40,435 nucleotides of DNA from a virus (taxonomy: Duplodnaviria; Caudoviricetes), in the IMG/VR virus record IMGVR_UViG_3300012172_000002, positions 1-40,435 of that record. One strand, 5' to 3'. The notes below the pieces were generated by a model. It was not told the origin of the DNA. It saw nothing but the letters and a program-made list of their open reading frames with translations, and ran no database searches. Both the position numbers and the translations under genes were made by a program. The stretch's first letter is position 1. Every line of letters starts with the position of its first letter. Positions 8,281-14,630 of this stretch are shown here, piece after piece.

Positions 8281-9108
8281 TTAGGCATTCAACAATTCCG
8301 GGTGTTGTCTATAGTCTCCTCCAAATCGATATATAAACAAATTTCTTTTATCTAAAATCCTGCTAGCTGTCCTAGCGCCTACTTTAGATTCAAGCTCTTT
8401 AGGATGGCAGTTTGTTGTAATAAGCGTCTTTCTTCTGTCAGCATACCTTCTATCTACTAGATCTAAAATTTTTTCTATCTGCCAATCCGTACCCGTAGTA
8501 GATCCTAAATCATCCAATATAAGATACTTAACATCAGATAATTTTGCAATGATTTCATACTCGGAACGGCCTTCATGATTAGCTTTTTTCATTTCTTCCA
8601 AAGCCCTTTGTGTGGTGGTGTAGTAGACATTCTCCCCAATATCATCAAGATAATTTAACATGGAAGCACAAAGAGTTGTCTTCCTGCAACCAGTTGATCC
8701 CATCATGCAAAGAAATGTCCTTTCATCTCTTATCCAAGCCTTAATATCTTGCAAAATCTTTGGAGGGGCTTCATAATTTGCCATAGTCCAATTGTGAAAA
8801 TCACAACCCATTTGAAACTTTTCAGCCGCTGTTTTAACAGGCAAATTTTCATTAATTTGTACCTTTGGAGGAGGTACATGAAACTTTTCAGACTTAAATT
8901 TTGATAGGTCTACATGCTTTTTAGGTTTAGACTCCTCATGCTGACAGAATACAATCCATTTACCGTTAGGGTTTGTTGAATCTTCCCGCCCAACATGAAA
9001 AGTATTTCCTCCACATGAAACACATTCATGAGGGTAGTTTTTAATTATTTTTGCTCCATCTTTTTCTTCAAGTTGCTCCGCTTGAATACCAACCGGTTGG
9101 AATATCAT
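8281..9108 (-). CDS. DnaC/IstB-like AAA+ helicase loader
   Basis: Walker A-like GSTGCRKT, Walker B LILDDLG, TLITTN, RTASRI; start uncertain (frame is open to 9219). Confidence 0.85.
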   Translation of the reverse strand: MIFQPVGIQAEQLEEKDGAKIIKNYPHECVSCGGNTFHVGREDSTNPNGKWIVFCQHEESKPKKHVDLSKFKSEKFHVPPPKVQINENLPVKTAAEKFQMGCDFHNWTMANYEAPPKILQDIKAWIRDERTFLCMMGSTGCRKTTLCASMLNYLDDIGENVYYTTTQRALEEMKKANHEGRSEYEIIAKLSDVKYLILDDLGSTTGTDWQIEKILDLVDRRYADRRKTLITTNCHPKELESKVGARTASRILDKRNLFIYRFGGDYRQHPELLNA

Positions 9109-9853
9109 CCGGCCGTTGATTAATTGCCCCTTTATCTGAAGCTCTCCCTTTGAAGGGAAAAGCTGAGGATTTAGGATTTTTTTTGTCTCTTTTGATAAAA
9201 GTTCTGAAAGCAGCTTCATAATCTAAATATCCTTTTGGTCGGTTGTTTGTGCAATAGTCATCTATGCATTCAATCACGTCCTTTACCGTGTTGAATCCGT
9301 GTTCCTGGACAAGTTTGTTGTAAGATTCCTCCTTTAACCGTACGAATTTACCGTACAATTTGCGATCATCTGTCTTTTTCTCGCGCGCACGCGGTTTATA
9401 TATATCTTTTTCTAACTCAATATTTGGTAACTCATTAATTGGTATTATACCCCCATTATCCACGCGTGGATGATCCACGTGTGGATAAGAGGGTTCTGGA
9501 ATATTTTTTTGAATGTTTTTCTCAACAGGTTCAGAGTAAACATCATATCGATGAACCCAAAAACCTTGAGAATCTTGTGATTTAGAATAGGTGATGTAGC
9601 CAGCATTTTTCAATTCTTTAATCAAGGAAAGAACAGCCTTCTCCCCTCCACCCTTCTTTTTTCCTTCATAGAATCGTGACAATTGCCAAGTGTGAAGTTT
9701 CCAAGTTTTTGATCGGCTTAAAAGATATCCCAGCAACCCTTTAGCAGCCCAAGAAATGTTCGGATTTTCCCAAATTGAGTTAGGCAAATTCCTAAATGGA
9801 CCTTCATATTGATGGACATGTATGTTGTAATTTGCTGATTCTGTAGGACTCAT
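9068..9853 (-). CDS. Replication initiator (lambda O-like, N-terminal winged helix)
   Basis: LPNSIWENPNISWAAKGLLGYLLSR...LIKELKNAGYI; upstream of the loader; carries an internal ori-like palindrome. Confidence 0.8.
   Translation of the reverse strand: MSPTESANYNIHVHQYEGPFRNLPNSIWENPNISWAAKGLLGYLLSRSKTWKLHTWQLSRFYEGKKKGGGEKAVLSLIKELKNAGYITYSKSQDSQGFWVHRYDVYSEPVEKNIQKNIPEPSYPHVDHPRVDNGGIIPINELPNIELEKDIYKPRAREKKTDDRKLYGKFVRLKEESYNKLVQEHGFNTVKDVIECIDDYCTNNRPKGYLDYEAAFRTFIKRDKKNPKSSAFPFKGRASDKGAINQRPDDIPTGWYSSGAT
9456..9488. other. Putative replication origin: 33-bp palindrome of four DnaA-box-like 9-mers
   Basis: TTATCCACG CGTGGAT G ATCCACG TGTGGATAA; the last 9-mer is a perfect TTATCCACA on the minus strand; AT-rich flanks. 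Confidence 0.6.
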
Positions 9854-9939
9854 AGCAACCTTCTTTTTTGTGTTGGTTAAATAACCGAAGGCTGCTATAG
9901 TGATAGATATCTAGAGTCTATCATATATAGCGCCTTCGG
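9852..9939 (-). promoter_or_regulatory. Two-state leader of the initiator mRNA (anti-anti-SD, anti-SD, SD+AUG)
   Basis: 9885-9899 can pair with either 9926-9939 or 9852-9863. Confidence 0.65.
9873..9901 (+). promoter_or_regulatory. Antisense promoter
   Basis: TTGGTT-17 nt-TATAGT with extended TGn. Confidence 0.6.
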
Positions 9940-9970
9940 AGAGGCCCCATTCAACAGGTGGGGCCTTTTC
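9907..9970 (+). ncRNA. Putative counter-transcribed RNA (about 63 nt) against the initiator leader
   Basis: Bounded by the promoter above and the terminator AGGCCCCAT/GTGGGGCCT-TTT at 9942-9969. Confidence 0.6.
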
Positions 9971-10060
9971 ATTCTCATCAAACTAATCTTTCCAGCTGAT
10001 AAATACAAGAAGTTTTGAAATATTTTTCATCTCTATGAACTCTAGTGCTTTACGAACGAG

Positions 10061-10089
10061 TTGACAAAAAATAATTGTTTTCATAACTT
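10061..10089 (+). promoter_or_regulatory. Antisense promoter 2
   Basis: TTGACA-17 nt-TAACTT. Confidence 0.55.
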
Positions 10090-10094
10090 GAACT

Positions 10095-10163
10095 TGTTCA
10101 TCAATGTAATGATGACTCCTTTCGGTTGTGTTGCCCTCGGCGGATATCCGTCGGGGGTTTTTT
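10095..10163 (+). ncRNA. Putative small RNA (about 68 nt) with an exposed anti-SD sequence
   Basis: 5-prime hairpin TCATCA/TGATGA, then CTCCTTTC, then an 11-bp terminator at 10133-10158 whose G-U pairs form only on the + strand, then a T run. Confidence 0.55.
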
Positions 10164-10350
10164 ATCTCTTCCTAAGCTCCTCAGCTGTCACAGACCCTCC
10201 AGTGTATAGCTCAATGACCTTCGCAAGCTTTACGCTCGGTAGGATAATTTTTAGGGTAATTTGGTTTAGGTAAACACGGCTCACGTTGATGTCTCTTGCC
10301 ATTTGTGCGATTTTTATGCGTTGCTGGTGTAAATAGTCTCTCAGTTCCAC
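10162..10350 (-). CDS. Cro/YdaS-like HTH regulator
   Basis: LRDYL...AQMARDINVSRVYLNQI...PSVKLAKVIE.YTGGSVT; GTG start after AAGGAGG. Confidence 0.8.
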   Translation of the reverse strand: MELRDYLHQQRIKIAQMARDINVSRVYLNQITLKIILPSVKLAKVIELYTGGSVTAEELRKR

Positions 10351-10373
10351 AAGTCCCTCCTTGTTTTGACCAT

Positions 10374-10434
10374 ATGATAACACTTGTATGAATTTAAGTC
10401 AAGGCTTGACATAAATTAGGGTCTATGTTATCTT
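10374..10434. promoter_or_regulatory. Back-to-back symmetric early promoters with a central 27-bp palindrome
   Basis: Minus: TTGACT-17-TATCAT; plus: TTGACA-17-TATCTT; both with TGn; palindrome AATTTAAGTCAAGGCTTGACATAAATT at 10391-10417. Confidence 0.75.
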
Positions 10435-12608: not shown

Positions 12609-12828
12609 TATATTGATTTCGATGCCATGCTTTGGCTGCTTGAAGTGTAATGAGATCGAATATGAAGTTTTGTCTAAAATTACTCAGATTGTCCAGGAAT
12701 ATAATCAGGATCATGATGATTACGGAGCATTTGAGCAAGCTATTCTAACGGCTAAATTGCAGCCATACATTGAGTTGCATGAAAAGTTCTTTAAGCAAGA
12801 TTATTCAAGCCTAAATCTTTGCGACTAG
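12589..12828 (+). CDS. Hypothetical protein
   Basis: Last + strand gene; stop overlaps the convergent gene. Confidence 0.5.
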   Translation: MKEIMFSILISMPCFGCLKCNEIEYEVLSKITQIVQEYNQDHDDYGAFEQAILTAKLQPYIELHEKFFKQDYSSLNLCD

Positions 12829-13427
12829 GATATTAGCATAGAGTATGAGATAACAACGTTAGCCGGGTTTGAAGTGAAAGCAGGGGTTACAAACTGCATC
12901 TGAAAATAATCACCGGCTGATACTGCTATGCTTAATCCAGTGTATGTAAAACTTTTTGGTGAAGATGACCATGTGACGGATGTCGAAAGATTTACTGCTG
13001 CCCCACCATTGATTAAATATCTATGGGTAATATTCTCACCGGTTCCCAAAGTTCCTACTTGAACAGTCCCATATATAGTAGTAATTGTTCCAGCCGCAGG
13101 GATCATTACTTGTGATAAAGCATTATTAGCGGTCACAAGACCTGCCGCATTGTCCGCAGATACAAAATAGGTTGTAGAATCGTTTATAGTGGCTGTATTC
13201 CTTGTGTAAAAAGCAGTAACCTTTTTTGCTCCCCCTGAAAAAGCCTGAAAAGAAGGCAGGTTTGAAGCTCCATTAGAAGTTAACGCATTTGTAGATGATC
13301 CAAGAGATGCAACAGATTGCAACGCACCTGTTGCAGTTGTCCCTCCACAAATTGGAGTGTAGGCTGTAAAAGATGAATTACCACTACCACCTTCAGGAAC
13401 TGTCAATATTTTAGGTTTATATGCCAT
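12825..13427 (-). CDS. Tail fibre tip or adhesin, paralogue 3
   Basis: MAYKPKILTVPEGGSG N-terminus; T/S/G/A-rich beta domain. Confidence 0.7.
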   Translation of the reverse strand: MAYKPKILTVPEGGSGNSSFTAYTPICGGTTATGALQSVASLGSSTNALTSNGASNLPSFQAFSGGAKKVTAFYTRNTATINDSTTYFVSADNAAGLVTANNALSQVMIPAAGTITTIYGTVQVGTLGTGENITHRYLINGGAAVNLSTSVTWSSSPKSFTYTGLSIAVSAGDYFQMQFVTPAFTSNPANVVISYSMLIS

Positions 13428-13428
13428 A

Positions 13429-14025
13429 TTAGCTAAATGCCAGTGAAAATGTTGTTGTAACGGTTGTTGGATTTGTTGCCCAGGTTGGGGTTACGATTTT
13501 AATCTGAATATAATCCCCAGCCGATAATGATAGCCCAATCGATGTTGCCGTTATTAAGGTTGGATTTGTTGTCCATTGAGACGTTGTCGTTAAGGCTGTA
13601 TCGGTTGTGTTATTCACTCTCGCATATATGCTTACGTTCTCATTGCTTCCCAAAGTTCCAGCTATTACCACCCTTCCATAAACAGCATTTAGAGTACAAT
13701 TTATTGGAATATACAACCATGATTGGGGTCTGCTTTGAGTCGTCTCAAAAGTGTTTCTTGTCCCAGCATAATATGTGGTTGCATCAAGTGGTGCTCCAGC
13801 ATTGTCCACTCCGTTAAAGTTCATTATAAACGTTGAGGCTACAGTTTGAAAACTGGGTAATGATCCAGCACCATTTGACAATAAAACATTTCCAGAAGAT
13901 CCCACACTGATTGATTGCAAAGGTCCCGTCGATGTTGTTCCACCAAACAAAACACTATAAGCGGTATTTGAAGAAACTCCAGAACCACCTTCTGCGATTG
14001 CTAAAACTTTAGGCTTATATGACAT
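13429..14025 (-). CDS. Tail fibre tip or adhesin, paralogue 2
   Basis: MSYKPKVLAIAEGGSG; AGDYIQIKIVTP. Confidence 0.7.
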   Translation of the reverse strand: MSYKPKVLAIAEGGSGVSSNTAYSVLFGGTTSTGPLQSISVGSSGNVLLSNGAGSLPSFQTVASTFIMNFNGVDNAGAPLDATTYYAGTRNTFETTQSRPQSWLYIPINCTLNAVYGRVVIAGTLGSNENVSIYARVNNTTDTALTTTSQWTTNPTLITATSIGLSLSAGDYIQIKIVTPTWATNPTTVTTTFSLAFS

Positions 14026-14027
14026 GT

Positions 14028-14630
14028 TTATCCTGAAAAAACAAAATTAGCAATAATACGTACAGCAAGTGGATTTGTGGGGTTCCAAACCGGTGTTACA
14101 ATTTTTAATTGTATGTAATCACCAGCGGCAAGAGCTGTAGATAATCCGGTTACGCTAAAAGGAATACTTGCAACATCCCATGTTGAGGTTGTTGTAATCG
14201 TTACGTCAGTTGTGTTATTTACTCTAACATACATTGAAACTGCTTGGTTTGATCCGGCCGTACACTCAATAACACCATATACACCAGTTAAAGTACATGC
14301 GACAGGAATAAATGTCCAAGTATCAACATCTGTTTGAGCAGTCCCCATCGTTTGAATTGCGCCCACATAATAAGTTGTAGAATCTGCAGGTGTTCCATTT
14401 GCTGTACCTGACCATCTCAATATAGAAAATGTACCTCCAGGGGCATTTTGAAATGTAGGTAATGCACCAGCACCATTGGATGTTAAAACTTGACCAGATG
14501 TCCCAACTCCTGCTATTGACTGAATAGCGCCAGTTGAAGATGTTCCTCCGCATAAGACAGCATAATCTGTCGTAGAAGCAACTCCTGTGCCACCTTCTGG
14601 AACGGTTATAACTTTCGGTTTATATGACAT
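14028..14630 (-). CDS. Tail fibre tip or adhesin, paralogue 1
   Basis: MSYKPKVITVPEGGTG; GQVLTSNGAGALPTFQ fibre motif; AGDYIQLKIVTP. Confidence 0.7.
   Translation of the reverse strand: MSYKPKVITVPEGGTGVASTTDYAVLCGGTSSTGAIQSIAGVGTSGQVLTSNGAGALPTFQNAPGGTFSILRWSGTANGTPADSTTYYVGAIQTMGTAQTDVDTWTFIPVACTLTGVYGVIECTAGSNQAVSMYVRVNNTTDVTITTTSTWDVASIPFSVTGLSTALAAGDYIQLKIVTPVWNPTNPLAVRIIANFVFSG

Follow-up and report, generated by a model that had tools for sequence, protein, structure and literature searches.

Control of phage replication initiators is usually ascribed to repressors acting at the promoter. The closest described counterpart of the locus reported here is the staphylococcal RepA_N plasmid pSK41, whose counter-transcript RNAI (∼83 nt, with two stem-loops and a dispensable 5′ tail) binds the rep leader ∼100 nt upstream and, as proposed in the source cited here, brings about a stem-loop in which the ribosome-binding site (RBS) is sequestered, without attenuating transcription; the origin lies inside rep (PMC5703833). 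In pT181 (RNAI) and pIP501 (RNAIII), a pre-emptor segment holds the 5′ arm of the RBS stem until the antisense RNA binds, and the stem then induced is, in those same sections, a terminator (PMC5703833). The repABC counter-transcript (55 to 59 nt), located in p42d just upstream of an initiator gene that contains the origin, likewise induces an intrinsic terminator, whereas the Shine-Dalgarno (SD) sequence is free without the RNA, as far as the cited portions describe (PMC3155836, PMC10194956). In phage λ, OOP is a self-terminating 77-nt RNA made just before gene O; it acts against cII, whose 3′ end it overlaps, via RNase III, and the cited parts of its literature describe no anti-RBS switch on O (PMC3349717, PMC12197685, PMC7067206). 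Within open-access papers, we found no report of an antisense RNA-triggered anti-RBS switch before a phage initiator gene.

The window (the whole stretch of DNA analyzed, 40,435 bp) is a complete virus record with direct terminal repeats, and its terminase, P22-like portal, capsid, and tail proteins are those of a tailed phage. A standard promoter scan lists divergent promoter-like sites at 10374 to 10434, from which a RecT/RecE-like module runs on the plus strand and, on the minus strand, a Cro-like helix-turn-helix (HTH) gene, a 309-bp gap, the initiator gene, and a gene encoding a DnaC-like helicase loader follow in that order (Table 1). Between 10162 and 9853, the minus strand holds no ORF of at least 40 aa, only frames of 15 to 33 codons. 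A previous sequence-only reading of this DNA had called the initiator λ O-like: a phage initiator it is, encoded before a DnaC-like loader, but "O-like" is too specific, since its matches are to generic phage initiator and DnaD-like families. The initiator model showed weak winged-helix fold matches to DnaB, RctB, and DnaD (best E, 0.011); Foldseek with this model returned nothing at E 0.001 or better, and PDB sequence (0 matches), Pfam, and single-protein locus searches with the initiator were likewise empty. The palindrome in its linker-coding region, with a DnaA-box match called by a pattern that we take to be that of the DnaA box, is a likely candidate origin of replication. The initiator and loader slot is occupied by several unrelated protein families within the one phage family (10 loci), one of them, as read by eye, with a DnaB-like helicase.

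Table 1. Features of the initiator locus (positions in the window)
Feature	Position	Strand	Basis
DnaC-like helicase loader, downstream of initiator	8281..9219	-	phrog_50, E 3e-37
Phage replication initiator, 261 aa, N-terminal winged helix	9068..9853	-	phrog_270, E 2.5e-10; DnaD-like phrog_186
43-bp palindrome, two 15-bp repeats, DnaA-box match (9480)	9451..9493		In initiator's linker-coding region
Initiator RBS and start codon, target of B	9851..9863	-	Sequence check, folding, covariation
Predicted antisense promoter, TTGGTT-17-TATAGT, extended TG	9873..9901	+	Positional conservation in relatives
Segment B (anti-RBS)	9885..9899	-	Folding, covariation, RNAalifold
Inner stem (9917-9923/9901-9907) and 9-nt apical loop (9908-9916), predicted toehold for antisense 5′ end	9901..9923	-	Folding
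Predicted antisense RNA, about 63 to 66 nt	9907..9972	+	Inferred from promoter and terminator
Segment A (pre-emptor), holding B in free mRNA	9926..9939	-	Folding; cognate A:B preference
Terminator-like hairpin for antisense RNA, stem 9942-9949/9959-9966, short U tract	9940..9972	+	-15.3 kcal/mol
Predicted sense promoter of initiator leader, TTGTAT-17-TAGTTT, +1 near 9973	9980..10008	-	Positional conservation in relatives
Second opposite-strand unit, TTGACA-17-TAACTT, ∼68 nt, terminator 10133-10165	10062..10165	+	Weakly supported
Small Cro-like HTH gene, upstream of initiator	10162..10383	-	Sole HTH_3 match in genome

The segment coordinates given by the sequence-only reading all agree with the sequence. 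In the initiator mRNA, segment B can pair either with the upstream segment A or with the RBS and the AU of the start codon (9852 to 9863, 12 bp including one G-U; start codon at 9853). These helices are mutually exclusive, as had been proposed, with z scores of about −5.5: the A:B hairpin reaches −27.7 kcal/mol (z, −5.38) and the B:RBS fold in the absence of A −19.8 kcal/mol (z, −5.59), and for neither was any of 200 shuffles as good. The inverted repeats of the plus strand fold better still (−56.2 kcal/mol; z, −6.93), so folding energy alone cannot assign the strand in use.

Read on the other strand, segment B forms the spacer and −10 box of the predicted antisense promoter (TTGGTT at 9873 to 9878, 17 nt, TG at 9893 and 9894, TATAGT at 9896 to 9901). 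Its −35 box matches the consensus at only 3 of 6 positions, which counts against the promoter. The antisense terminator has a G+C stem, and the complementary bases of the mRNA fold as its 5′ hairpin. Both plus-strand signals had been pointed out before; they are visible by eye and keep their positions in relatives, but the standard scan listed neither. That scan, moreover, found promoter-like sites at chance level (12 versus 12.3 expected). Promoter and terminator are therefore weak on the window alone, and their support comes from the relatives. A predicted sense promoter (10008 to 9980), absent from the earlier reading, faces the end of the antisense terminator; because it lies directly beyond it, the unit would be a self-contained pair of convergent promoters. 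This arrangement, together with an antisense 5′ end that faces the apical loop, is a predicted feature newly described here. A 25-codon frame on the minus strand (9972 to 9895), possibly leaderless, has its first codon at the predicted sense +1 and its stop codon within B.

When the mRNA leader was cofolded with the antisense RNA, the switch predicted by the sequence-only reading was obtained: the energy needed to open the RBS rose from 5.5 kcal/mol in the free mRNA, comparable to that of control genes (median, 5.1), to 17.4 kcal/mol, and the first 31 bases of the antisense RNA sufficed (17.3 kcal/mol). Part of the RBS is still paired with the coding region in the free-mRNA fold, which counts against the switch. 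By a rule applied identically to all leaders, which compares the cost of opening the RBS when either 62 or 200 upstream bases are included, the switch value of the window is 13.3 kcal/mol; shuffles averaged 0.1 and reached 7.4 at most (n = 200; leader bases shuffled, RBS kept). The predicted antisense +1 coincides with the 3′ edge of the apical loop, whose unpaired probability is 0.89 in the window. In 24 of 33 leaders, the first ten bases that the predicted antisense RNA would meet were more open than the leader average (P = 1.7e-4), with promoters chosen by us and the five leaders without a clear promoter excluded.

Our set of relatives (n = 33) comprises 23 distinct loci with initiator homologues at E 1e-20 or better and 10 RecT-linked phages in which other protein families fill the initiator slot; it leaves out duplicate contigs and 12 loci with no identified initiator slot (three of which were inspected). 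Four more distant loci were treated separately, and counts over 38 leaders refer to the relatives, the window, and these four. A switch was scored at a cut of 3 kcal/mol, and an antisense promoter at a score of 6.5 or more with the −35 box starting 15 to 35 bases before the start codon; all promoter calls rest on this score, our own weighted consensus of what we take to be the promoter hexamers. The 3-kcal/mol cut was reached by 23 of 33 relatives and by 5 of 136 controls, for which we took other genes of these phages. An antisense promoter in the −15 to −35 range occurred in 25 of the 33 relatives and 17 of the 136 controls, and both features occurred together in 17 of the 33 and in none of the 136. 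The other 10 relatives fell below the fixed cut; with each leader's own predicted RNA, the switch was ≥3 kcal/mol in 21 of 30 and lower in 9. Since the control genes are mostly intra-operon, we added composition-matched shuffles, and 11 of 21 lineage representatives did better than all 20 shuffles of their own leader. With one leader for each 68%-identity cluster, 13 of 21 had the switch, 15 the promoter, and 9 both; for 62%-identity clusters the numbers were 3, 4, and 1 of 7, at a threshold that chains nearly all leaders and is close to the background identity of 57%.

An opposite-strand hairpin with a U tract is present in 35 of the 38 leaders. When sense-promoter sites scoring ≥6.3 are binned by their +1 in 8-nt steps, the two bins next to the terminator stem on its upstream side hold 12 and 8 of 30 leaders, and no other bin holds more than 3; most relatives have a predicted sense promoter in this position. 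The design is kept before unrelated initiator families at six loci, and one relative, L200, lacks the element. The three-way complementarity of A, B, and SD, on which the earlier proposal had been staked, is therefore conserved in relatives when judged against controls. Among more distant initiator homologues (184 distinct leaders from 237 loci), 18 had the switch, 16 the promoter, and 7 both, so that the cassette, typical of this clade, occurs sporadically outside it. At three of the distant initiators (L082, L139, and L162), terminator, hairpin, promoter, and anti-RBS segment are laid out as in the window when read by eye; three others (L219, L059, and L262) also have this layout. Exact matches to segment B in viral contigs (n = 31) proved on inspection to be unrelated, chance sequence. 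Of three DNA sequencing runs compared with the locus, only the one that is probably its source has reads over the switch.

Leader identity to the window over the last 110 bases is 70% at most. Across 34 leaders, pairing of B was stronger with the cognate RBS than with foreign ones (median, −12.6 versus −7.3 kcal/mol; P = 1.8e-5) and likewise with the cognate A (−22.1 versus −16.1 kcal/mol; P = 3.8e-6); both preferences held in 22 cluster representatives (RBS, P = 1.1e-3; A, P = 6.9e-4). In shuffle tests of these 34 leaders taken singly, B:RBS was passed by 14, A:B by 15, both by 8, and the promoter by 21. In an alignment of 10 leaders, hand-picked for similar geometry and spacing and with A and the terminator left unaligned, 9 of the 12 B:RBS pairs have changed on both sides, and 74% of alignment cells pair at B:RBS, compared with 30 to 47% in slid registers; none of 500 shuffles reached its covariation score, in a control that ignores relatedness. 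RNAalifold picks the B:RBS helix unprompted. On the A5 alignment, both A:B and the terminator escaped it, a consequence of unequal lengths and poor alignment there.

On these sequence comparisons, the regulatory cassette is real and conserved, a variant of plasmid-type antisense control in a phage, with a predicted antisense RNA. The best reading, which we consider probable, is translational attenuation of the pSK41 type, triggered by the predicted antisense RNA and with a proposed feedback on replication. The sense promoter would yield an mRNA from near 9973 that, by computation, should fold A:B once ∼90 nt have been made, leaving the RBS as accessible as that of an ordinary gene. From the convergent promoter inside B, an antisense RNA would be made that ends at the hairpin at 9942 to 9966; both promoters are placed here by their conservation. 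The loosely folded 5′ end of this ∼63-nt counter-transcript would meet the apical loop and invade A, with 31 nt of 5′ pairing computed to be enough, and B would be freed to close over the RBS and AUG, so that initiator translation would drop without termination of transcription, as computation and covariation suggest. Since the amount of antisense RNA would rise and fall with the number of genome copies, negative feedback on replication would follow, and incoming phages with the same leader would be blocked, both by extension from plasmid models. The two transcripts, their path of binding, and the replication feedback are thus what we infer, and control of copy number by the antisense RNA is suggested by analogy.

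If this is true, phages without a repressor could sense their genome copy number and exclude close kin. The brake would be a plasmid-type, sequence-specific RNA acting on initiator translation, kept across lineages and swapped initiator genes, and it would account for a recurring intergenic pattern in phage genomes. The cassette spans a mere 120 bp, nature supplies numerous divergent versions of it, and it lends itself to reporter tests that need no host.

The sequence-only reading took pT181 and repABC as models. The counter-transcripts of those plasmids mainly induce terminators, as described in the parts cited (PMC5703833, PMC3155836), and no intrinsic terminator would form before the start codon here: all 38 leaders lack a U-run after the B:RBS helix (between −6 and +12, no stretch of 8 nt contains ≥6 T). 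This makes pSK41 RNAI the closer model. Here, a counter-transcript to the leader upstream of the RBS, and not to the RBS region, is predicted from a positionally conserved promoter and terminator. As in pSK41, its binding induces an RBS-sequestering stem-loop in silico, in agreement with covariation, and this stem is not a terminator. The phage, a tailed-phage genome rather than a plasmid, differs in its initiator, which has no Pfam match to place it in RepA_N, its shorter predicted RNA, its single terminator hairpin, its promoter built into the anti-RBS segment, and its predicted entry from 5′ tail to loop; we liken the two by description, not by sequence. From repABC it also differs in having no repAB partition operon and no Rfam match. 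Rfam gave no match at gathering score in the window, its counter-transcript models included, and in 20 related loci it gave only tRNAs; of 8 weak hits, none was above gathering. The element would work like pSK41 and is outside the pSK41, pT181, repABC, and OOP families. P4 CI and P1 C4 RNAs are transcribed from the strand of their own targets; membership of that group was rejected, with signals on the opposite strand and no Rfam match.

Among the alternatives, the one that survives best, although we judge it improbable, is an OOP-like mechanism in which the antisense RNA forms a 63-bp duplex that is cut by RNase III, destabilizing the initiator mRNA, with B:RBS pairing secondary. A short self-terminating antisense RNA is predicted directly before the initiator gene, a genomic slot that equals tO-oop-pO of λ as outlined in the cited parts (PMC3349717, PMC12197685); the full duplex is computed to be very stable, and about one-third of relatives, five loci among them, possess both promoter and terminator yet switch little at B:RBS. 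Yet such decay leaves the cognate B:RBS preference and the compensatory changes unexplained. OOP, moreover, overlaps the 3′ end of cII, whereas this phage has no cII, no conserved coding region lies within the span of the predicted RNA, and it is the initiator RBS that covaries as the target. RNase III decay and anti-RBS attenuation may act together.

We also think it quite improbable that the folds are switched not by a free antisense RNA but by a protein, by the two convergent promoters colliding, or by a ribosome that translates the 25-codon frame. The promoters do converge, over ∼65 bp, and the short frame exists, with its stop inside B; however, its start codon is missing in most relatives and frame lengths differ (read by eye), and the conserved terminator and loop-facing 5′ end fit a discrete RNA product. 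P4 CI RNA binds two sites, and an antisense RNA carrying a copy of B could bind the RBS directly in that style. Its 5′ part is computed to form a duplex of −14.8 kcal/mol with the RBS, but the perfect site A (−62.3 kcal/mol) and intramolecular B:RBS pairing (−20.6 kcal/mol) are stronger, so this would be a minor path, and as the main one it is very unlikely. That the B:RBS helix serves as a terminator, in transcriptional attenuation of the pT181, pIP501, or p42d type, is highly improbable given the T-poor leaders, even though the three-segment logic of pre-emptor, 5′ arm, and RBS-containing 3′ arm is shared with pT181 and p42d in the parts of the sources cited (PMC5703833, PMC3155836). Finally, the repeats can hardly be a DNA element (protein site or cruciform) or chance, for although the mRNA strand folds no better than the plus strand, their fixed geometry to the start codon and a pairing that tracks the RBS across lineages are RNA-level signatures.

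Beyond the preferred reading, that of RNA-triggered translational attenuation, one can imagine a wider picture that we regard as unlikely: these would be tailed phages of environmental Chlamydiae, extrachromosomal without CI, integrase, or partition genes, in which the antisense switch is the sole copy control and immunity (an RNA-only dormancy), its fast-changing sequence sets incompatibility groups, and the cassette is general before phage initiators in other phyla. No tyrosine integrase, resolvase, ParA, or CI was detectable in the complete 40-kb genome; a tyrosine recombinase is present in 2 of 5 relatives tested, and ParA in 1 of five genomes that partly coincide with these and count the window among them. 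With no ParA in the genome, a stable plasmid state that would need copy control is conjectural, which counts against the preferred reading.

A chlamydial host is weakly hinted at by RecT, whose best plasmid match is a Criblamydia sequanensis plasmid (35%; E, 4e-27; next best, 2e-9). In a stretch of this plasmid (NZ_LK031773; L302, 5552 to 13369) that looks like a prophage remnant of hypothetical genes, 5 of 15 genes tested match early and tail genes of the phage family. Unclassified viruses predicted to infect Chlamydiales are mentioned in the part of PMC12644861 cited here. A gene for an outer-membrane beta-barrel protein (PF13505; 6579 to 7136, minus strand), which points to a Gram-negative host, is also present in two relatives and has a possible role in entry exclusion or at the host surface. 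Counting against a chlamydial host is L283, the one locus of 24 taken from species genomes that is closely related. It belongs to a low-GC block of 42 kb (36 to 48% GC; L327 to L329; G006:C68, 1 to ∼42,000), a related phage with four tRNA genes, which terminates a metagenome-assembled Acidobacteria contig of 55 to 64% GC with an abrupt junction; it is possibly a prophage or a mis-join. A RecT profile search, run without a positive control, matched none of 401 Acidobacteria genomes, and searches with the outer-membrane, SpoVG-like, capsid, and portal proteins indicated no host.

Elsewhere in the window, three tandem paralogues of ∼200 aa each (12825 to 14630, minus strand) adjoin the tail genes and have near-identical N termini; those scanned gave no family match. 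The second opposite-strand unit (Table 1) ends at the HTH stop codon, and its spacing to a 15-codon minus-strand ORF (10030 to 9983; 33 codons from a start at 10084) matches that of the initiator unit. The leader of the first gene after the HTH gene in relatives has a switch value of ≥2.5 in only 3 of 8 cases; that of the 15-codon ORF has a value of 4.7. Eight relatives carry one or two small genes (∼95 to 110 aa), absent in the window, between the HTH and initiator genes.
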